From Candidatus Woesearchaeota archaeon (GTDB lineage: Archaea; Nanobdellota; Nanobdellia; Woesearchaeales; GCA-2687795): 64,000 bases of DNA. The stretch's first letter is position 1, and every line of letters begins with the position of its first letter. Below are positions 3,423 through 52,212 of the stretch, in pieces. A program made the position numbers and the translations under genes. The stretch is from positions 4,250 to 68,249 of the forward strand of contig NZBG01000024.1 of the NCBI GenBank assembly GCA_002687795.1, written 5' to 3'. The notes under the pieces are model-generated. The model saw only the letters and a program-made list of their open reading frames with translations. It was not told the DNA's origin and searched no databases.

Positions 3423-4208
3423 ATGATAATCGATAAGGCGTTTTTAAGCAGGTTAAAGGACTTTGGCCTTAACAGCTATGAGTGCAAATTATGGACAGCA
3501 CTCTTGTCTAGAGGAATTTCTACTGCAGGCGAGTTGTCTGAGATAGCAAATGTGCCAAGGTCAAGAAGTTATGATGTTCTTGAAAGCCTGGAAAAGAAGG
3601 GATTTATAATTATGAAGTTAGGCAAACCAATAAAATATATTGCTGTGAAGCCGGAAGAGGTAATAGAAAGGGTAAAGAAGAATGTTGAGAAACAGGCAAG
3701 TGAAAACATAAGCCTGATTGATAACATAAGGTCCACAAACTTGGTTAAAGAATTAACAACTTTATACAGCCAGGGAATAGAGAAAGTTGATCCAATGGAT
3801 TTCTCAGGCTCCTTTAAGAGCAGGGACAGTATTTATAGCCATATGGAAACAATGATTAAGAATGCAAACAAATCAATTATAATTAATACATCAGAGGCAG
3901 GTTTAAAGAGAAAATTAAGGGCATTTTCAAGGCTGCTTGAGAAAGCAAACAAGAAAGGTATTGGGATAAGAGTAGGGGTTAAGTCTAATGATATTAAAAT
4001 TAATGTTCCAAAACATATAGAATTAAGAAAAAGCAATATCAATGCAAGATTTTGCATAGTTGACGGCAAAGAATTCATTTTTATGTTATCAGATGATAAA
4101 GAGATAAACCCTGGAAATGATGTGGGTGTTTGGGTTAATACAAGCTTCTTTGCATCAGCTGTCCAAGATTTCTTTGAGAATGAATGGAAGAAGATGGGAA
4201 AGATTTAG
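3423..4208 (+). CDS. TrmB-family transcriptional regulator
   Basis: 261 aa. N-terminal wHTH typical of TrmB: LKDFGLNSYECKLWTALLSRGISTAGELSEIANVPRSRSYDVLESLEKKGFI. Confidence 0.75.
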   Translation: MIIDKAFLSRLKDFGLNSYECKLWTALLSRGISTAGELSEIANVPRSRSYDVLESLEKKGFIIMKLGKPIKYIAVKPEEVIERVKKNVEKQASENISLIDNIRSTNLVKELTTLYSQGIEKVDPMDFSGSFKSRDSIYSHMETMIKNANKSIIINTSEAGLKRKLRAFSRLLEKANKKGIGIRVGVKSNDIKINVPKHIELRKSNINARFCIVDGKEFIFMLSDDKEINPGNDVGVWVNTSFFASAVQDFFENEWKKMGKI

Positions 4209-4221
4209 TCTTCTTTATTTT

Positions 4222-5388
4222 TTAAACATTATAATAATCATCTAAAACAATAACCTCCAGTTCTTCTAACTTTTTTGCAATATATAATCTGCCATTTCCA
4301 AGCTCAACAATCTTCCCGGCGAGCTCTTTTCCTTTGTCATTAAGGTTTATTCCCACTAAAGAAATAGTTATCTGATTATTTCTTGCTTTCTCAACAGCTT
4401 CAAGGGTTTCTTTTTCAGGTTCTTTCCCAATGGTTGGCAGGGCATCGGTTATAAGCATTAAATGTTTTGCAGCTGCTTTATCCCTAAACATAACTACAGA
4501 ACTTTCAATTGTAGCTTTAATGTCTGTTTCATTCAATGCCCTGATCTTAGCAACCTCAAATAATAGCTTCAGAAAATCGTTTGTGGGGTTTACAACAGAT
4601 TTGATGGTAGAGCTGAAAACAACCAATCCAACCTTATCCTTATTTTCAATTGCCTTAAACGCTAATGCAATGCCAGCCTTTTTACACATCTCTATCTTTT
4701 TGCCTTTCATAGAGCCTGAAGCATCAAGAGCATAAACAATGTCAGTTTTTCCCTTTGTCTTTCTCTTATAGCCTTTGATATCATCCGCTGTTAATATCTT
4801 ATGGTTTCTTCTTATGGCAAGCTTAAGGCTTTTTCTGATAGCAATATCCCTATACCTAATACCTTTCTTATAGCCTTCTATGTTATCCTTGTCTCCATAA
4901 ACGAAATCTTTCTCATGTTTCTTATCACCTGAACCGGATGGCTTGAATTTATTAAGCTCTTCAAACAATAATATCACAGAAGCAAGCTCAAGGCCTTTTT
5001 GGGTTATATTAGAGTCTTTAATCAGCCCCTCTTCGTTTAATTTATCAATATTATCTTTAACATTGTTCTTTATCTCCCTTTGGAATTCAGGCAGCACAAT
5101 ATTCTTTGATACATAATCAGGGTTGTAGTTTGAAAGAAACCTTATCATGGAATCTCCATAAATCTGTTTTGCTAAAGAGAAATTTTTTATAAGACTTTCC
5201 GCAATATCCCCAGGTATAAAGCTAATGCCCTGATTGATTGCCTGGTTCAGTAATGATCCCTTGCCTATTGTTTCTTTATTTCCCTTGAGAATTTCATCAG
5301 TTATATTCTTATCCAGCTTGTCAAGAATACCTTTCAGATAGCCCTTTTCTTCTTTTAATTCTTTTTGCTTTATGCTACGGGCAACCAC
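4222..5388 (-). CDS. von Willebrand factor A (VWA) domain protein, ChlD-like partner of the upstream ATPase
   Basis: 388 aa. VWA MIDAS start DIVYALDASGSMKG in the C-terminal half. Its start overlaps the ATPase stop by 14 nt. Confidence 0.75.
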   Translation of the reverse strand: MVARSIKQKELKEEKGYLKGILDKLDKNITDEILKGNKETIGKGSLLNQAINQGISFIPGDIAESLIKNFSLAKQIYGDSMIRFLSNYNPDYVSKNIVLPEFQREIKNNVKDNIDKLNEEGLIKDSNITQKGLELASVILLFEELNKFKPSGSGDKKHEKDFVYGDKDNIEGYKKGIRYRDIAIRKSLKLAIRRNHKILTADDIKGYKRKTKGKTDIVYALDASGSMKGKKIEMCKKAGIALAFKAIENKDKVGLVVFSSTIKSVVNPTNDFLKLLFEVAKIRALNETDIKATIESSVVMFRDKAAAKHLMLITDALPTIGKEPEKETLEAVEKARNNQITISLVGINLNDKGKELAGKIVELGNGRLYIAKKLEELEVIVLDDYYNV

Positions 5389-9532: not shown

Positions 9533-9829
9533 ATGGATCTTATTGTTGAGAACGCATTAAAAAATAATTCTAATAATTTCAATTCAGACAACATGGAGAT
9601 TGGCAAGGCTAATATTAAGGTTATTGGTGTTGGCGGCGCAGGCAATAACATGGTTAATTGGCTCTATAAAAAGGGAATACGGGGAGCTGAGATTATTGCA
9701 TGCAATACTGATAAACAACATCTTGACGCTACTGAAGCTGTAAATGCTTTTGTCAGGCCTAGACTCTATAAAGTTGCCAGATACATCCAGGGTGATAATG
9801 AACAACAGGAACAGGTTATGGTTGGTTAA
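9533..9829 (+). pseudogene. ftsZ: FtsZ N-terminal remnant (about 69 homologous codons, then unrelated tail)
   Basis: SD gaggtga lies before ATG 9533. KANIKVIGVGGAGNNMVNWLYKKGIRGAEIIACNTDKQHLDATEA matches the archaeal FtsZ G-box region. Homology stops near 9739, and both other frames hit stops at once. The convergent kinase gene occupies the space where about 300 more codons would be needed. Confidence 0.7.
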
Positions 9830-10352
9830 TCCTTTTAATAACCTCTTCACTAACCTTCTCAGCAGGCATACCGGTTGTGCCAACAATAATATCATACTGC
9901 TTTTTATCATAACAGTCCAGGCTGTAATATTTTTTGTACCTTAACCTCTCGCTTTTTATCCTCCTCTTTACATTTTCCATTGTTTTATTCAAGGTTAAGT
10001 TTTCTTTTTCTTCTTTTCTCCTGCAGTTGAAGATTCTTTCAGCAGCTGTTTTTAAATCAACCTCTAAAAACACTTTGACAGAATTTGGGATGAAATGAAA
10101 CCCAAGCCTTGAGTCAATAACAAAATTATCTTCACTCTTGCCCAACTCAATCTGCCTTTTATCAAGCTCTTCATCAACCCATCTCTCTTTTTCAGCAATT
10201 TTGCCAAGCTCCAGCAAAGAAATCCCTTTTTTCTCAGCAATCTCTCTCATAAAATCTCCAATTGAATAATGTTTCAGCTTAAGCTTTTTTGCTATGAGTT
10301 TAGCAACACTGCTCTTACCTGAGCCGGGTTTTCCGGAGATTGTGATGATCAT
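9816..10352 (-). CDS. cmk: Archaeal-type cytidylate kinase
   Basis: MIITISGKPGSGKSSVAKLIAKKL P-loop and an overall length of about 178 aa. ATG at 10352 is preferred over the track start 10385 because a TATA-like tttttatattt lies about 28 nt upstream of it. Confidence 0.7.
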   Translation of the reverse strand: MIITISGKPGSGKSSVAKLIAKKLKLKHYSIGDFMREIAEKKGISLLELGKIAEKERWVDEELDKRQIELGKSEDNFVIDSRLGFHFIPNSVKVFLEVDLKTAAERIFNCRRKEEKENLTLNKTMENVKRRIKSERLRYKKYYSLDCYDKKQYDIIVGTTGMPAEKVSEEVIKRINQP

Positions 10353-10414
10353 AAGCTTAGCTTTGCTATCCAAATATAAAAACATTTTTATTATAAACTA
10401 ACATTTTCCTTATT

Positions 10415-44001: not shown

Positions 44002-45188
44002 TTAACCCTTCTTAAATATTTTCCCAAGATAAGAAAACCATCCAAAACATTTCCCTTTATAAGCTTTCTTTAAGAACCCACATTTCAAGGGTTTGCACTC
44101 ATTCCCTTCAGTAAACTCGTTATCTTCACATTCAAGCTCAACACATTCATGGTCTAAAATCTGTTCATTTTCATAACATTCTAACTTAACACATTCATGT
44201 TCAAAGGCAAACTCATCTTCTTTGCATTCTAATTTAATGCATTCATGTTCCCCAAGGTATTCATCATCCTCGCATTCCAGTGAAATACATTCATGCTCAA
44301 CCAACTGTTCATCTTCCTTGCATTCCAATGAAATACATTTATTCTCAGAGCATTCTTCATCTTCTTTGCAAACACTGCTCTCGCAGCATTCATAATCATA
44401 ACATGTATTGTTCATTGGATATTGGCATTCATCGCATTCCGACTTTGAGCAGGTACCTTCTTCACATATTTCATCAGTGAAACAATCTTCATTCCTGTCG
44501 CAGGATGGCATCTCTATACAATTCGCCCTTTCCCTTAAATTATACTTTGCTCTTTCACAGCCATCGTATGATACTATAAACCTTGATACATTAAGAGGGG
44601 TTTCCCAGCTCATTATGAAGCGGTTCTTTGTTTTGAACTGCCTTACTACCATATCAGTCTCATTAAACTCTTTACTGAGAATATCAGGAGCATGCGTATA
44701 TGTTTTCTTTTCCTTTGTTTCAGCATCATACCTTAATGTATAGGGCTGGTTAAACCTTAAAGAATTATCTTTATCTATCTTGAAATTATTGGCAGTAAAC
44801 TTGGCATAGAAGGTATCATTTCTTTTATAGCAGTAGTCCACAGACATATTGAATATCCTGCAGCTGAACTTAAACGCAGGGCATTTTGCAGTAGATTTCC
44901 TTCTCCCGATAACAACAGTATACCTTGTTGGTTTACTGCTTACAAACAAAGCCTCCTCTGAACGGAAGCGAAATTTATTGTCTTCATACTCAGTCCAAGT
45001 TCCATCAACCTTAAAATAAGGATCTTTTGAGCTCTTTTTCCTTGCAGATACCAGCCCCTTTGATTTTCCAGAGACACCAGTTATAAGGATAGAGCCATCA
45101 TCATTACATTTGATAGAGGCTGCGTAGGAGAAAGTAGACAAAACAAAAAAAACAAGAAAAAACTAAAAACTAAAAATAGTTTTTTCAT
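44002..45188 (-). CDS. Secreted cysteine-rich protein with a 16-aa tandem CxxLEC repeat; the signal peptide is out of frame by one base in this assembly
   Basis: The track ORF is 44002..45141 (TTG start). An ATG at 45188 overlaps the upstream stop (TAATG) and encodes MKKLFLVFSFFLFF..., one frame off. One extra A in the A8 run (45145-45152) or the A6 run (45157-45162) restores MKKLFLVFSFFLFFFVLSTFSYA/ASIKC. Confidence 0.6.
44080..44337 (-). repeat. 48-bp coding tandem repeat, about 5.4 copies
   Basis: CISLECKEDEQLVEHE / CISLECEDDEYLGEHE / CIKLECKEDEFAFEHE / CVKLECYENEQILDHE / CVELECEDNEFTEGNE / CKPLKC. Confidence 0.9.
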
Positions 45189-47800
45189 TATTCCGTGTTT
45201 CCTTCTTCAGAAGGTTTTGGTTCTTCAAATGACTCCTCTTCGAACTCTTCTTCAAAGTCTTCAGACTCTTTTTCTTCGAAAAACTCTTCTTCTTCAAAAG
45301 GTTCCTCATCAAAACCCTCCATCTCTTCAAAGGGTTCTTCTTCAAATTCTTCCTCCTCGAAAAACTCTTCTTCATCTTCTCCAATTTCTTCCCAGTCATC
45401 AAATTCCTCTCCTTCTAGACCTCCTTCCAGTTCATTTATTTCACTATATAAGTCTTCAATCTGCTCCTCCTGGAACTGGTCATTCAAAGAGCTGCATGCA
45501 TCATCTCCAACATAATTATCGCTCTCATCAAAGCAGTAATCAGGAGCTGTCCCATGATCAACTTCACCCTGGAAGAACTCTTCGTGCAATGCGCTGCATG
45601 CGTCATTTCCTATATACTCACCATCCTCATAACAATAATCAGGAGGCCCTCCTTCTCCTGGCCCTCCTTCACCGCCAGGACCTCCCCTCTCATCATTCCT
45701 TCTACTACACTCTTCATCACCAACATATTCCCCACTTTCATCAAAGCAGTATTCAGGAGCAGTTCCAAATTTTCCTTCGCCTCCATACAACTCTTCTATT
45801 ATAACTGCGCATTTCAATTCTCCTATAAATCCCATCCCTTCTCCTTCAAAGCATTCATCAGGTGATGCGCCATACCTCTCTTTCATCATATTATGGCACT
45901 CTTCCCAGTTGCTTGCGCCAAGGCTAACACACCCTGGATCAATCCTTTTCATACATTCCTCATCACCAACATACCATCCAATTTCATCCAGGCACTCTGG
46001 AGGTGAAGGCCCAAATTCACCTTCTTCTCCTTCTTCACCCCAGCCCATTATACCTGCGCATTCTTCATGGCCAATAAACATATCTCCTTCCACGCACTCA
46101 TCAGGATGGGCTCCAGCATATTCTACTCCTGTCAGTTGCTTGCAATAATCTCCCCCTATGTATTGCCCTTCTCTAAAGCATTCTTCTGGGGGCCTTCCCA
46201 TCATATCCCACATTGCCTCCTCACATGCATGCATTCCAATATACTGTCCATTATCCATGCATTCCCTTGGCATTGTGTTGGAATCTCCTCCCTCATCACC
46301 CCACATGCCTTCACAGTCATCAAATGTTGTTCCCCCAGCTTCAGCGCATTCAGGGTTTATTGCAGCAATGCATTCTTCATCTCCGATGTAATTATCATTT
46401 TCATCAAGGCATTCTGGTGGTGTTGGGCCATATATATCACCCATGATTTCCTCGCATTCTTCTTTTGAATAGGCACCAGCTTCTTTGCATTCAGGGGGTA
46501 GTATTATTTCCATGCATTCTTCTTCTGTGGTTGCTCCAGCTTCTAGACATTCAGGAGGCAGCATAATTTCCATCATAATTTCCTTGCATTCTTCTCTTGA
46601 ATAGGCACCAGCATCTTTGCATTCTTGCGGCAGCATTATGTCCATGCACTCTTGCTCTCCTATAAAAATGCCGTCTTCATCAAGGCACTGCAGTGGAGTA
46701 GGGCCATATATCTCAACCATAATTTCCTCGCACTCCATTGGACCTATAAACTCGCCATTCTCCATACATTCATCAGGCGGAGACCCATAAATTTCAAACA
46801 TCAGTTCCTCGCATTCTTCTTGTGTAGTTAGGCCTTCTCTCACGCATTCAGGAGGCATAAAATCATCAAACATCTCTCTTTCTTTTTCTCTTACATGCTC
46901 TGTAAATTCTTTATCTTCAAACCCTTCAGGCATTTCTATTGTATCTAGCTCATCACAAGCCCTTTGATTAAATTCAAACTCGCATTCAATTGCTAAAGGG
47001 ACAGCCTTTTCGCACACTTTTCTATGGCTTTTAACAGGTATCTTGCTGCAATCGCACTCTCTTGGATCAATAAAGCATTGTGCCATTCCATCCATAATTC
47101 CTTCTTTTGCTTTTTCTTCCCTGTCTTTTAGATCATCCCCTATATATTCATCCAGCCAGTCAAGGGCATTATCAATATCACATCTTGGCTCTGCTTCCAT
47201 TAGCTTCCAGTCCTGCAAAGCAAGTTTTTCGCATAAATTCTGGATTTTTGCAGCAAGCTCAACTGCCATCTTATTTTTATCTGCCTGTGTGCTTTGCGCA
47301 TCAATCATACTTTTAACTTCATCCCAGTCAGCTGGCATTGATTCTTCCATCTCCTTTAATATCGCATTAATAGCAGCCATCCTTTCATTTGTTTCGTTTT
47401 GTAAATCAGGGCTTGCTTCCTGTTCTATAATTGTAGAAATATTATGTGCTCTTGCCAAAGCTTTCTTAGTTTCATCTGGTTTATTCTTATCAACCATTAG
47501 CTTTGCTTCTGCAACCTTTTCTTCAGTAACCTTTAAGGCAAACTCTGCCTTATCCTTCCCCTTCTTTAAGGTAAGCCTGACATCATCTATAAACGTGTCA
47601 ACAACATAAAGTGGGCTGTCAGGAGTTATGCCTGCCTTATTTTCTATGATTTCTTCCTCAATAAACATTTCCTCGTCTTCAAAATCCTCAAAAGCACTTT
47701 CATCAAGAGTAGCCTCTCTGGCAAACATATCATCCTGCGCATAAACAATACCAATACATAGAATTAATATTAATAAGAACCATTTCTCCATTTTTCTCAT
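45188..47800 (-). CDS. Large secreted acidic protein: DUF5667-like helical N-domain, about 17 two-cysteine modules, poly-E/F tail
   Basis: 870 aa. Signal peptide MRKMEKWFLLILILCIGIVYA/QDD. ITPDSPLYVVDTFIDDVRLTL...KVTEEKVAEAK resembles the PxSPLY...ERLAEA module. Residues about 316-770 hold interleaved PPEC.EAGA..EEC and P.EC.D..G.[FY][IV]G..EC units. The tail is EEEFFEEEEFEEEPFEEMEGFDEEPFEEEEFFEE. Confidence 0.7.
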   Translation of the reverse strand: MRKMEKWFLLILILCIGIVYAQDDMFAREATLDESAFEDFEDEEMFIEEEIIENKAGITPDSPLYVVDTFIDDVRLTLKKGKDKAEFALKVTEEKVAEAKLMVDKNKPDETKKALARAHNISTIIEQEASPDLQNETNERMAAINAILKEMEESMPADWDEVKSMIDAQSTQADKNKMAVELAAKIQNLCEKLALQDWKLMEAEPRCDIDNALDWLDEYIGDDLKDREEKAKEGIMDGMAQCFIDPRECDCSKIPVKSHRKVCEKAVPLAIECEFEFNQRACDELDTIEMPEGFEDKEFTEHVREKEREMFDDFMPPECVREGLTTQEECEELMFEIYGSPPDECMENGEFIGPMECEEIMVEIYGPTPLQCLDEDGIFIGEQECMDIMLPQECKDAGAYSREECKEIMMEIMLPPECLEAGATTEEECMEIILPPECKEAGAYSKEECEEIMGDIYGPTPPECLDENDNYIGDEECIAAINPECAEAGGTTFDDCEGMWGDEGGDSNTMPRECMDNGQYIGMHACEEAMWDMMGRPPEECFREGQYIGGDYCKQLTGVEYAGAHPDECVEGDMFIGHEECAGIMGWGEEGEEGEFGPSPPECLDEIGWYVGDEECMKRIDPGCVSLGASNWEECHNMMKERYGASPDECFEGEGMGFIGELKCAVIIEELYGGEGKFGTAPEYCFDESGEYVGDEECSRRNDERGGPGGEGGPGEGGPPDYCYEDGEYIGNDACSALHEEFFQGEVDHGTAPDYCFDESDNYVGDDACSSLNDQFQEEQIEDLYSEINELEGGLEGEEFDDWEEIGEDEEEFFEEEEFEEEPFEEMEGFDEEPFEEEEFFEEKESEDFEEEFEEESFEEPKPSEEGNTE

Positions 47801-47886: not shown

Positions 47887-49596
47887 CTATAAGCCTAATT
47901 CAACATCCTGTTCATACTTTTTCCTAAACTTCAAGGCATGCTCAGCCTTCTGCAGTTCCCTGCCAAGATAGATTGCATGGTCAGTCTTATAAATCTGCCC
48001 AACATGAGAAATCTTCAAACCGATATCCAAGGCAGTCTTCCCTTCAAACCTCTCAAGCTCCTGATTACTCTCTTTATCAACATGGGTAAGCACAATATTA
48101 TTATCTTTTACCTCAATAACATAATTCCCTCTTGCATCATTGTAATCAATCTTCTGTTTTCTAAACTTAGCAAGCGTATCCTCAACCTGCTGATAATAAT
48201 GATTATAGATATGCGCGCTTCCTGAAGTGATAGTAAGAATTCCAGGCTTAACTCCTATTTCATCAGCAATCCTTTTCTGTATTGCAGCGCATCCATAAGC
48301 ATTCTCAGGCCAGCCCTGAGTCATGTCATGGCTTCTGAAGAACACAAACAGGTTAAGCTTTTCATCATGAATCAATGCCTGTAGGAATACAAGGCATGGG
48401 CTGCTCTTATGCTTTCTCATCAGCTCATCCTGGGCATGCCATGTAATTGCCACAACATTCTTTGACTTAGGGTCTCTCTTAAGAACCTCAATCATATCCT
48501 GCAGTTGGTCAATCTCACAGCATTCCTTTCCAAGCTTGTTTTTCTTATAAATTAGATTTGCATCTAAATGTGAACCTTGGCCAAACTCAAAATCCTTATA
48601 CTCCTTAGAACTAACCAACTCCTTGATTTCCTCAGCAGAAGGATAATAATAAGCCCTCAGCTTATTCCCATAAGTATAAGCCTTGCCTTCAGGCAGTATA
48701 GGAGACAAAATCTCTTTCTTATAAGCCTCAATCTTTTCATTTGTTAATGGAACAAGGAAAGGGTTATATGATAAATCAATGTTCTGCGGGTCATGTATAA
48801 CAGCAACCATATTATTGATTTCTTTGATCCACCTGTCAGTCTCTGCATTCATAAGGTTATCCTTTCCATACCTATAGATATTATGTATGATCTCAACCCA
48901 GGTTTCAGGAATTGTACTGCAATGCACAACCAAAGGTCCCCCTTCATATTGCATAGCAACCTTTGACTTTTCATATTCAAAGGTGTATGGCTGCTCAATA
49001 AAAGGCTCTTTCCTCTCAAGCATCCTAATCAAGTCGTTTGCTTTCTCAATCTTCTCCTCAAAGCTTGCATCAGGCATATCCTTATTCAAATCAATAAGCT
49101 TTACATTATCTTTAACCTTCATAACCATCTCAGTAGGAATATTCTTATCAATATACACAGAATTCTCAAACCCTGGAACCTTTCTGTTTTCATCAATGCC
49201 TTTTTCAAAGAAAGCCCTTAATGCATTAGCGCTTGTAAGCTCAACCCCTTCATCACTCTTAGCAGTGCCATCTCCGGACTTGGAAGAATACTCCTCACCC
49301 AGCATTATGATATATCTTATGTAAGGATTGCCTAAAATATTCCTTAACATCCCTGTAAGTCCTGATGGTGTGTAAAAGTTAGTGGCAATCGCAAGATTCT
49401 CCTTATCAAGCCTGGGAATAACAGCGTCCCTCATAGTCCATAAGAAAGTCACAGCAACATTAGGCAAATCAGAAGCATTGTTTTTTCCTGATTCCTTAAA
49501 CAGATGATAAGCAACCCTGTCCTTGACAGCAACAGGCCAGCCAAGACTGCCATCACTGCCTTTTAAGACCTTAATATCATCAATATTCAGGCTCAT
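47887..49596 (-). CDS. Thymidylate-synthase (ThyA)-family enzyme with a long N-terminal MtrA-like extension
   Basis: 569 aa. The C-terminal half has ThyA signatures: KSSPCLVFLQ (catalytic Cys), FFRSHD, GWPENAYG, SGSAHIYNHY. The N-terminal 200 aa (GWPVAV..., NILGNPYIRYIIMLGEE, ANALRAFFEKGIDENRKVPGF, VKLIDLN) parallel MtrA as I recall it (GWP..., NPNIRYLLVTGSE, SLHANGVKDNRISGA, VDVVNLL). Confidence 0.65.
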   Translation of the reverse strand: MSLNIDDIKVLKGSDGSLGWPVAVKDRVAYHLFKESGKNNASDLPNVAVTFLWTMRDAVIPRLDKENLAIATNFYTPSGLTGMLRNILGNPYIRYIIMLGEEYSSKSGDGTAKSDEGVELTSANALRAFFEKGIDENRKVPGFENSVYIDKNIPTEMVMKVKDNVKLIDLNKDMPDASFEEKIEKANDLIRMLERKEPFIEQPYTFEYEKSKVAMQYEGGPLVVHCSTIPETWVEIIHNIYRYGKDNLMNAETDRWIKEINNMVAVIHDPQNIDLSYNPFLVPLTNEKIEAYKKEILSPILPEGKAYTYGNKLRAYYYPSAEEIKELVSSKEYKDFEFGQGSHLDANLIYKKNKLGKECCEIDQLQDMIEVLKRDPKSKNVVAITWHAQDELMRKHKSSPCLVFLQALIHDEKLNLFVFFRSHDMTQGWPENAYGCAAIQKRIADEIGVKPGILTITSGSAHIYNHYYQQVEDTLAKFRKQKIDYNDARGNYVIEVKDNNIVLTHVDKESNQELERFEGKTALDIGLKISHVGQIYKTDHAIYLGRELQKAEHALKFRKKYEQDVELGL

Positions 49597-49665
49597 TTTA
49601 TAATCAGGAAAAATCAGAATTATTTAAATAAAGTTGTGATGGAAAATATATAAAATAGAATTGTT

Positions 49666-50157
49666 TTATTCATCCTTATACTTAACCAAAGGAACCAGCT
49701 CTTCGCTCAGAACTTCACCGGAAGAGCTGTCAATCTTAACATTCAGTGTGGATAAGGCGCTGGTGATATATGTAATGTTCCATACCTGTCCTATACCAAG
49801 CTTCTGCAGTATAACAATGATCTTTGTAGAATCAACCTTATACTTCTCTGCCCTTAATTTGTTTGTAATCCCCAATGCTTCCTCAAGGCTTACCTTAACC
49901 TTATCAAGCTCAAGCCCAAAAACATCTGTTTCCTCTTTCTTAAAAACCTCCTGTTCAGGTATTATCTCCATATTATTCTCAGTCAGCTTAAAGGTTGTAA
50001 TATTATCCTTTTTCTTACTATAATAACCAGCCTGCCATTCTTCTTCTCCCGGGAGAATCTTAAACAGGTATGAAAGAAAGCTCTCTTTATTCTTCTTTCT
50101 CCATTCATTGAACTCAGGGAATTTCTCCAGTTTCTTAGGGATTTCTTCAGGTTTCAT
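49666..50157 (-). CDS. Hypothetical protein, weak PepSY-like C-terminal half
   Basis: 163 aa. EEALGITNKLRAEKY...VWNITYITSALSTLNVKIDSSSGEVL. Confidence 0.35.
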   Translation of the reverse strand: MKPEEIPKKLEKFPEFNEWRKKNKESFLSYLFKILPGEEEWQAGYYSKKKDNITTFKLTENNMEIIPEQEVFKKEETDVFGLELDKVKVSLEEALGITNKLRAEKYKVDSTKIIVILQKLGIGQVWNITYITSALSTLNVKIDSSSGEVLSEELVPLVKYKDE

Positions 50158-51645: not shown

Positions 51646-52212
51646 TTACTTTTTTTCTTCCTTTTGTTCAGGTTTATTTTCTTCTTTTGGTTCTTCTTGT
51701 TTAGGCTCTTCCTTCTTTGGGGTTTCTTCAGGCTTTTGTTCCTTTGGCGCTTCCTTTGCTTCTGGTTTCTTTTCTTCTTTTTTCTCTTCTTTAGTTTCTT
51801 TTTCAGGAGCTTTTTCCTCTTTCTTCTCTCCTTCTTTGCTTCCAAACACATCAGCCAGCTTCTTACTTCCTGCCTTTACAACATTCAGGTTTATTTGAGA
51901 GATATTAGCATGAACCGTGTTCCCGCAAACGGTTTTTCTCTGTTTTATGCCTTTTTCTTTCTTTTTCAGGCCAACACCGCTAACAGCTAATATCTTTTTC
52001 CTTGCTGAGCCTCTTACATCCCTTCTCATAGGAAAGCCTGATGAATCAGAACCACCGGTTATTAGCAGTTCATAGCCTGTAAGATTGATTATTTCTCCCT
52101 TTATTTTATCGCCTATTGATTTCCCGATAAATGTCTTGCTATCAGGCTCGTTTATGACTGTTTGATAGCTTTTACCGGTTTTCTCTGATATTGTAAGCTT
52201 GAAATCTACCAT
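51646..52212 (-). CDS. rps6e: 30S ribosomal protein S6e with a K/E/P-rich C-terminal extension
   Basis: MVDFKLTISEKTGKSYQ..., GYELLITGGSDSSGFPMRRDVRGSARKKIL, KGIKQRKTVCGN. The last 65 aa are (K/E/P) low complexity. Confidence 0.85.
   Translation of the reverse strand: MVDFKLTISEKTGKSYQTVINEPDSKTFIGKSIGDKIKGEIINLTGYELLITGGSDSSGFPMRRDVRGSARKKILAVSGVGLKKKEKGIKQRKTVCGNTVHANISQINLNVVKAGSKKLADVFGSKEGEKKEEKAPEKETKEEKKEEKKPEAKEAPKEQKPEETPKKEEPKQEEPKEENKPEQKEEKK

Follow-up and report, generated by a model that had tools for sequence, protein, structure and literature searches.

The window, a stretch of 64,000 nucleotides from a Candidatus Woesearchaeota archaeon (C24:4250-68249 of a 0.93-Mb assembly of 39 contigs, ~76% complete), was found to contain an uninterrupted open reading frame (ORF) for a 569-amino-acid (aa) protein of the thymidylate synthase family at 47887..49596 on the minus strand, with the stop codon at 47887-47889. 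All three domains of the protein exceeded their curated cut-offs in the Pfam scan. The MtrA-like N-terminal domain (residues 1-215; 48952..49596, minus strand) was recognised by PF04208 and by a family profile compared with the MtrA proteins of the PDB. It was followed by a minimal ThyA core of the methanogen type (residues 216-484; 48145..48951, minus strand), recognised by PF00303, TIGR03283 and Foldseek, and by a PterinBD-DUF4346 domain (residues 485-569; 47890..48144, minus strand), recognised by PF14251. The gene product is a ThyA-family enzyme with an uncharacterised and widely conserved three-domain architecture.

A first-pass annotation of the window had described a ThyA-family enzyme with a ~250-aa N-terminal extension. 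The extension was confirmed, and its length was corrected to ~215-220 aa, since the match to TIGR03283 begins at residue 223. The four ThyA motifs named there (SSPCLVFLQ, FFRSHD, GWPEN and SAHIYNHY) were all found in the translation of the ORF, whereas the third domain, the C-terminal PterinBD-DUF4346 (residues 487-564), had been overlooked. The identical 569-aa protein was present on 4 independent marine metagenome contigs, and more than 250 full-length homologues at 60-84% identity were found to share the three Pfam domains, by which a read-through or assembly artefact was ruled out. The fusion is genuine and conserved, and several hundred full-length relatives keep the three-domain layout. 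The 70-bp spacer upstream of the start codon (49597-49666) was found by eye to contain two AT-rich TATA-like elements, TTTATATA and TTTATTTAAATA, and these are consistent with an archaeal promoter of its own for the three-domain gene.

The ThyA core was matched by PF00303 over residues 358-482 at 75.7 bits (cut-off 24.3), a partial match that covered profile positions 105-231 of 266. The best NCBIfam family for the core was TIGR03283, for which residues 223-470 covered profile positions 2-200 of 201 at 152.4 bits. The thymidylate synthases of the PDB matched the core at E 2.6e-12 in a sequence search. The full-length AlphaFold2 (AF2) model was of moderate quality, with a predicted local distance difference test (pLDDT) score of 74.8 and a predicted template-modelling (pTM) score of 0.58. 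The top Foldseek matches of this model were all of the ThyA fold (E 5e-13) and were uninformative on the other two domains. The structure prediction that the first-pass annotation had recommended thus placed a ThyA fold in the core, and its assignment of a ThyA-family catalytic domain to the C-terminal half held, with the domain lying centrally and DUF4346 lying beyond it.

Equivalent residues were taken from alignments to solved ThyA structures and to one canonical ThyA of a related genome. In Escherichia coli ThyA numbering, C401 was found to correspond to C146, R421 to R166, S422 to S167, D424 to D169, N432 to N177, H462 to H207 and Y464 to Y209, and Y309-G310..R314 to the Y94 motif YGxxWR. 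Cys401, the predicted nucleophile within SSPCLVF, is encoded at 48394..48396 (minus strand) and was aligned to the PPCH of ThyA. The segment R421-S422-H423-D424...W429-P430-E431-N432, which contains the predicted binding motifs for the phosphate and the uracil of deoxyuridine monophosphate (dUMP), is encoded at 48301..48336 (minus strand) and was placed by ThyA alignments. The residues C401, D424 and N432 were invariant down to ~25% identity among 26 diverse family members, followed by R421 and S422 with a conservation of at least 90% across the broad family. The family also kept both the catalytic Cys and the general base equivalent to Y94, and H462 was replaced by Gln in most relatives.

The folate side of the core was found to differ from that of canonical ThyA. 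The position of E. coli His147 was occupied by Leu and that of Gln165 by Phe. No tryptophan motif like IWxEW (Trp80/Trp83) was seen before YTYG, in an N-terminal half that is poorly aligned there. The C-terminal ~50 residues of canonical ThyA were also not seen, as the core stops near profile position 231 of 266, where DUF4346 starts. A loss of the canonical folate-side elements from the core is likely, as judged from these alignments. No match to the dihydrofolate reductase (DHFR) domain PF00186 was found in the 569-aa protein even at E <= 10.

The N-terminal domain was matched by PF04208 (MtrA) over residues 79-182 at E 5.6e-6 and 26.5 bits (cut-off 25), a marginal pass, and by the MtrA subfamily model NF002126 of NCBIfam at E 1.5e-9, whereas the MtrA equivalog TIGR01111 clearly failed with 24.2 bits against a cut-off of 249. 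The N-domains of distant relatives scored 51-73.5 bits on PF04208. A profile built from 18 N-domains matched the MtrA proteins 5LAA (E 3.4e-11), 8Q3V (8e-8) and 5L8X (1.6e-6) and essentially nothing else in the PDB besides these three solved proteins. The alignment of this profile with 5LAA recovered the motif pairs NPxIR..G.E, NG(V/I)D..R and V.(L/I)(I/V)DL. The likeness to MtrA that the first-pass annotation had noted for the first ~200 aa is therefore a real homology, and its quoted motif pairs were reproduced. The scan of both halves with hidden Markov models, which it had proposed, placed PF04208 and PF00303 above their cut-offs. Because PF04208 passes marginally, TIGR01111 fails and the family profile matches the MtrA of the PDB, the sequence comparison identifies the N-domain as a homologue and not an orthologue of MtrA.

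In MtrA the cobalt is ligated by His84 as the lower axial ligand, which is hydrogen-bonded to Glu54, the contacts to the nucleotide tail of the corrinoid include Gly57 and Asn64, and the meander GAIPF(Y/F)xEN is the most conserved segment (PMC4915002). In the 569-aa protein, His84 was found to be replaced by K106 (codon 49279..49281, minus strand) and Glu54 by T76, with GSEVQGH paired with GEEYSSK in the HMMER alignment to 5LAA. The His84 position was occupied by K, R, S, T or N in 29 family representatives, none of which contained His. Among 82 relatives from named genomes it was Ser in 62, Thr in 13, another residue in 4 and a gap in 3, again with no His, and 2 of the 82 carried a His one position before this site. 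The equivalent of Glu54 was Ser or Thr in the relatives. The meander aligned to ENSVYIDKN (N(S/A)VY(I/F)DKN in the family), of which only the final Asn was retained, and the tail-pocket residues Gly57 and Asn64 were retained as G79 and N86.

The N-domain was nevertheless found to be strongly constrained, with 46 invariant columns among 18 sequences. It is an MtrA-derived Rossmann-type alpha/beta domain, and corrinoid binding in the manner of MtrA is unlikely because His84 and Glu54 are replaced in every aligned relative (no His among 111). The suggestion of the first-pass annotation that this domain brings corrinoid handling was accordingly not supported, and corrinoid binding through the MtrA histidine was rejected, as the position was never His in the 29 and 82 relatives. 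An unusual handling of the one-carbon carrier, the most interesting part of that suggestion, may still apply. A search for close stand-alone homologues of the N-domain yielded nothing but fragments of this fusion cut off where contigs end.

The C-terminal domain was matched by PF14251 over residues 487-564 at 66.8 bits (cut-off 29.6), with profile positions 2-86 of 86 covered. The AF2 model of the domain (pLDDT 90.9) contained a small beta-beta-beta-alpha-alpha fold, which occupies the place of the C-terminal folate-closing segment of canonical ThyA. The residues H540, G545, E547, A551, Q563 and D564 were nearly invariant, and Y543 was also among the conserved polar residues. A sequence-profile search found no homologue among the solved structures, and the best Foldseek match was at E 0.15, with generic beta-beta-beta-alpha-alpha matches. 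DUF4346 was also found to match the C-termini of TIGR00284, a model like dihydropteroate synthase, and of NF002128, a 390-aa model of the MtrA family (both NCBIfam). Since these C-termini share the domain, its known partners are all pterin-linked enzymes, an association that is not in itself proof of pterin binding. No second copy of DUF4346 was found in the window's own genome at its ~76% completeness.

The close homologues carried the source names Woesearchaeota, Nanoarchaeota and Aenigmarchaeota, which points to a DPANN-type archaeon as the source of the window, and an exhaustive search returned 155 cluster representatives at E <= 1e-30. Members at 27-40% identity still spanned residues ~45-567 with all three domains present. 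A scan of ~186,000 species-representative genomes contained 368 loci. The hosts were found to include cultured Chloroflexales (Oscillochloris trichoides DG6, Ca. Viridilinea mediisalina and Ca. Chlorohelix), Anaerolineae, one metagenome-assembled genome (MAG) of Planctomycetota and bacteria of the candidate phyla radiation (CPR; Kerfeldbacteria, Saccharibacteria and Microgenomates), followed by the archaeal Woese-, Pace-, Aenigm-, Micr- and Marsarchaeota and MAGs of Thaumarchaeota. The three-domain content was confirmed in six of the hosts found by the scan. In a quick tree of the core, with a single canonical ThyA as outgroup, all three-domain forms fell into one clade in which bacteria and archaea were intermixed. 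Public annotations of the family read 'thymidylate synthase', 'DUF4346 domain-containing protein' or 'hypothetical', and no published description of the three-domain architecture was found in full-text literature searches.

Some relatives were found to add a C-terminal deaminase of deoxycytidine monophosphate (dCMP), and one of them also a nucleoside 2-deoxyribosyltransferase domain. The extended forms were P0088 (919 aa), P0034, P0036, P0079 and P0109 (735-770 aa), P0131 (733 aa) and P0147 (837 aa), the last of which apparently holds two tandem ThyA-DUF4346 units.

Thymidylate synthesis is essential and is a classic drug target, and it is known in two forms, ThyA, which needs DHFR, and ThyX, which is flavin-dependent and needs no DHFR. 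Five queries were tabulated over 251 genomes of the window's class, in counts for which the p-values are indicative only. The three-domain gene was found in 38 genomes and ThyX in 107, with an overlap of 0 against 16.2 expected (Fisher p 7e-11). With full-length canonical ThyA (39 genomes), FolA-type DHFR (34) and serine hydroxymethyltransferase (SHMT; 21) the overlap was one genome each, and in all three cases it was G065. This genome contained a separate SHMT-ThyA-DHFR cluster (G065:C4:3507-6190, L091) in addition to its three-domain gene (G065:C1:98699-99394), a combination that may reflect an ongoing replacement or a recent transfer. Canonical ThyA and FolA-type DHFR overlapped in 27 genomes (p 1e-20) and ThyX and SHMT in 13, and because only 13 of the 107 ThyX genomes contain SHMT, its absence says nothing specific on the three-domain enzyme. 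The mutual exclusion with ThyX, together with the 1 of 38 genomes shared with canonical ThyA, argues that the three-domain gene fills the slot of the thymidylate synthase.

Two further arrangements were observed in the class. Nine genomes of family f52 of 0.4-0.6 Mb (G072, G094, G124, G142, G176, G186, G191, G196 and G246) contained a full-length canonical ThyA and no FolA-type DHFR, ThyX or three-domain gene, and are a further case of thyA without folA. Many of the ThyX matches, such as G026:C2:11944-13176, G166:C1:648595-649896 and G250:C2:31664-32911, contained two Thy1 domains in one open frame of 450-630 aa, an apparently tandem-fused ThyX-ThyX that is common in the class.

Outside the class, 31 named genomes with a distant three-domain gene were searched with one concatenated sequence (SHMT 1-419, ThyA 420-709, DHFR 710-864 and ThyX 865-1108), a single-sequence probe whose sensitivity is below that of a profile. 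The parts of the probe came from G065 and G177, and these two genomes were the positive controls. No match to canonical ThyA, DHFR or ThyX was returned by 21 of the 31 genomes, which include all eight Chloroflexota; five Chloroflexales genomes of 4.4-6.7 Mb returned SHMT only. Wherever DHFR was found, canonical ThyA was found as well (6 of 6), and the 21 genomes with the three-domain gene as the only candidate all returned no DHFR. The exclusivity is strong and is not universal.

The class was also found to contain stand-alone proteins of the ThyA fold of ~215-235 aa, with TIGR03283 as their best match (115-128 bits). These short paralogues co-occurred with ThyX in 16 of 25 genomes, or else with canonical ThyA. 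All 15 that were examined (loci L098-L112, e.g. L098 at 9725-10384 on the plus strand, L099 at 3552-4223 on the minus strand and L100 at 9670-10338 on the plus strand; genomes G014, G137, G081, G095, G031, G212, G143, G222, G207, G064, G073, G232, G015, G043 and G187) were without the catalytic Cys, which was replaced by Gly, Ser or Ala/Ser-Trp. The motifs SRRA, RSND, GWPxN and SAH(I/V/L)(F/Y) were retained, and the paralogues formed a separate clade in the core tree. They are probably not thymidylate synthases. Because the paralogues that coexist with ThyX all lack the Cys, it is specifically the three-domain form with its Cys that is anticorrelated with ThyX. A split module, with a separate MtrA-DUF4346 gene beside a short ThyA, was considered, and no MtrA-like or DUF4346 gene was found by the family HMMs within ~10 kb of the 15 class paralogues. 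At L055, in a Patescibacteria genome, another ORF of the ThyA fold (at least 300 aa; from 1629, minus strand) was observed ~1 kb from the three-domain gene and on the opposite strand, and in the core tree it grouped with the short paralogues that lack the Cys.

The window's own genome, ~76% complete, was searched for folate and thyX genes as the first-pass annotation had suggested, and no ThyX, other ThyA match, FolA-type DHFR, SHMT, FolD or dCMP deaminase was found in it. Orthologues elsewhere were found to adjoin the thymidylate kinase gene (tmk) directly, to adjoin the nucleoside diphosphate kinase gene (ndk), or to lie ~1 kb from the gene for deoxycytidine triphosphate deaminase (dcd). The neighbours within the window were a PfkB kinase, the ribosomal protein S6e, a methyltransferase and Cys-rich secreted proteins, and no nucleotide or folate partner, mtrA-H operon or methanogenesis context was found in this neighbourhood.

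With moderate confidence, and from sequence-based evidence throughout, the gene is taken to encode the only thymidylate synthase of the organism, in which the two accessory domains would form or complete the site of a pterin cofactor or would hold the cofactor. In the proposed reaction, Cys401 would attack C6 of dUMP, which would be held by the Y309-G310 motif and by R421, S422, D424, N432, H462 and Y464. A one-carbon unit would then pass from a reduced pterin carrier to C5 to give deoxythymidine monophosphate (dTMP). The two accessory domains would provide or stand in for the elements on the cofactor side that are probably missing from the minimal core, and would bind or retain the one-carbon pterin. 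The activity, the identity of the cofactor and the role of the accessory domains are put forward here as predictions from the observed homologies, conservation, phyletic pattern and gene contexts. Ordinary dTMP synthesis is favoured because Asn432 is invariant, ThyX is excluded, dCMP deaminase is fused to some relatives and tmk, ndk and dcd are neighbours of others.

Several observations weigh against this assignment. The core missed the equivalog cut-off of TIGR03283 (174.55) with its 152.4 bits. The second arginine of the dimer partner (E. coli R127) was Asn or Ala in the close subfamily, with SKN or SKA in place of DRR, and the N-terminal half of the core aligned poorly to canonical ThyA, so that the assignments of E58 and R21 are at the level of motifs only. 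The class counts ignore shared ancestry. Among the 31 named genomes, 6 also contained canonical ThyA and DHFR, and 3-4 contained ThyX. The absences in the window's own genome were recorded at only ~76% completeness, and dcd and tmk were likewise not found there by a low-power single-sequence tblastn search, in which ndk was found. The role proposed for the accessory domains is deduced from association only, and the model with pTM 0.58 is too uncertain for contacts between domains.

A more far-reaching proposal is that the MtrA-like and DUF4346 module makes dTMP synthesis independent of DHFR, which would give a third mechanistic class on a minimal ThyA core. The dihydropterin would be re-reduced on the enzyme, or a different donor would provide the hydride and the pterin would at no point be oxidised, and such an enzyme would resemble ThyX or the DHFR-TS fusions in function while being built from unrelated parts. 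We regard it as possible and rather doubtful. FolA-type DHFR was present in 27 of the 39 class genomes with canonical ThyA and in 1 of the 38 with the three-domain gene, namely G065 with its own SHMT-ThyA-DHFR cluster, and its absence from all 21 three-domain-only named genomes extends to large free-living Chloroflexales. A phyletic signature without DHFR is that of ThyX, and the Rossmann-type fold of the N-domain keeps part of the nucleotide-tail pocket (G79 and N86). However, the protein showed no recognisable motif for flavin, NAD(P)H or another redox cofactor, and DUF4346 was without a structural analogue that hints at redox chemistry. The absence of FolA is itself not diagnostic, because 12 of the 39 class genomes with canonical ThyA were also without FolA, and genomes with thyA and without folA have been reported in other lineages (PMC11974145). 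The search covered reductases of the FolA type only, and not FolM/PTR1, DmrA, DmrB, DmrX or flavin-dependent reductases, and DPANN cells may import reduced folates.

The remaining explanations change the product or the donor. The first-pass annotation had raised a modified-pyrimidine activity, and another C5-modifying enzyme of the ThyA fold, such as a hydroxymethylase of dUMP or dCMP with accessory domains that adapt the chemistry, would agree with the hydroxymethylases (e.g. MilA, 5JNH) found among the structural neighbours at similar scores, with the altered folate-side residues and with the TIGR03283 score below its cut-off. It is nevertheless improbable, since the invariant Asn432, the equivalent of the uracil-selecting Asn177, selects uracil over cytosine and the Asp typical of dCMP hydroxymethylases was not present, and since the exclusion of ThyX and canonical ThyA in the class would leave such cells without dTMP synthesis. 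Relatives that are fused to dCMP deaminase or lie beside tmk, ndk and dcd agree with a place in the main pathway to deoxythymidine triphosphate, and the gene was found in free-living Chloroflexales that contained no match to another thymidylate synthase. Least probable, and very unlikely, is a cobamide-dependent third route to thymidylate, in which the MtrA-like domain would still bind a corrinoid, in a His-off state or through another ligand, and relay a methyl group to dUMP. In favour of it, homology of the domain to MtrA is real, and Gly57 and Asn64 are kept as G79 and N86, but in the 111 relatives the His84 equivalent was never His, the Glu54 equivalent was Ser or Thr and GAIPF(Y/F)xEN reads N(S/A)VY(I/F)DKN. 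The catalytic Cys and the Y94-equivalent base of the methylene and hydride mechanism of ThyA were moreover kept, and the absence of an MtrA-like or DUF4346 gene within 10 kb of the 15 short paralogues also tells against a relay. To our knowledge a corrinoid relay to dUMP has no precedent, which counts against it as well.

The enzyme was compared with known systems. It shares with the methanogen-type ThyA of TIGR03283 a minimal ThyA fold of ~200 aa that probably lacks the N- and C-terminal elements of the canonical folate side, but it differs in its insertions within the core, in two flanking domains that total ~300 aa and in its score below 174.55. The biochemistry of ThyA in methanogens is little known, and the difference between ThyA and ThyX has been described (PMC9012536). 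With canonical ThyA (PF00303; the enzymes of E. coli and Lactobacillus casei and human thymidylate synthase (TS); EC 2.1.1.45) it shares the fold, the catalytic Cys, the dUMP-binding set and the YGxxxR motif, whereas His147 is changed to Leu and Gln165 to Phe, one arginine of the dimer partner is lost, no IWxEW or C-terminal tail was seen and the gene does not travel with folA. The likeness to MtrA, the corrinoid subunit of the methyltransferase with methyl-tetrahydromethanopterin as donor and coenzyme M as acceptor, extends over ~100 homologous residues with NPxIR, G-x-(D/E), NG(V/I)D, Gly57 and Asn64, in contrast to the loss of His84 and Glu54, the absence of a membrane anchor, an mtr operon and a methanogenesis context, and an N-domain that leads into a ThyA core.

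The DHFR-TS of protozoa and plants is likewise a TS permanently fused to an N-terminal alpha/beta domain at a similar total length, and the DHFR-TS of Trypanosoma cruzi appeared in the Foldseek list through its TS part. The three-domain protein differs from it by the absence of PF00186, by an N-domain of the MtrA family and by the extra C-terminal DUF4346. ThyX (PF02511) occupies the same genomic niche, as no class genome contained the two together and each is found in genomes without FolA, but its fold is unrelated, and the three-domain protein contains no Thy1 domain and keeps the cysteine nucleophile of ThyA.

Some of the genes around the locus were found to have unusual compositions. Directly downstream, at 45188-47800 (minus strand), the window contained a gene for a very acidic 870-aa protein with DUF5667, a signal-like N-terminus and dozens of regularly spaced Cys pairs, followed at 44002-45141 (minus strand) by one for a 379-aa protein with ECxxLECxEDE repeats. 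The ribosomal protein S6e at 51646-52212 (minus strand) contained a C-terminal tail of ~60 aa of almost pure Lys, Glu and Pro. A 69-aa Lys/Arg-rich ORF overlapped the S6e gene in another frame and is probably spurious.

A third architecture thus fills the slot of the thymidylate synthase in ~15% of the 251 class genomes, and it is found in culturable phototrophs as well. The three-domain form combines an independence from folA in its phyletic pattern, like that of ThyX, with the predicted cysteine chemistry of ThyA. If the accessory domains only bind the cofactor, the outcome would be a corrected annotation for hundreds of proteins now called 'hypothetical' or 'DUF4346', with a first hint at what DUF4346 does. 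If the redox logic is changed, the textbook picture of two enzymes would be revised by a third class present in DPANN archaea and CPR bacteria, in some Thaumarchaeota and in free-living Chloroflexales, and DNA synthesis would be explained in many reduced genomes that contain thyA without folA. As Oscillochloris trichoides DG6 carries the gene, the question is testable in a cultured organism.

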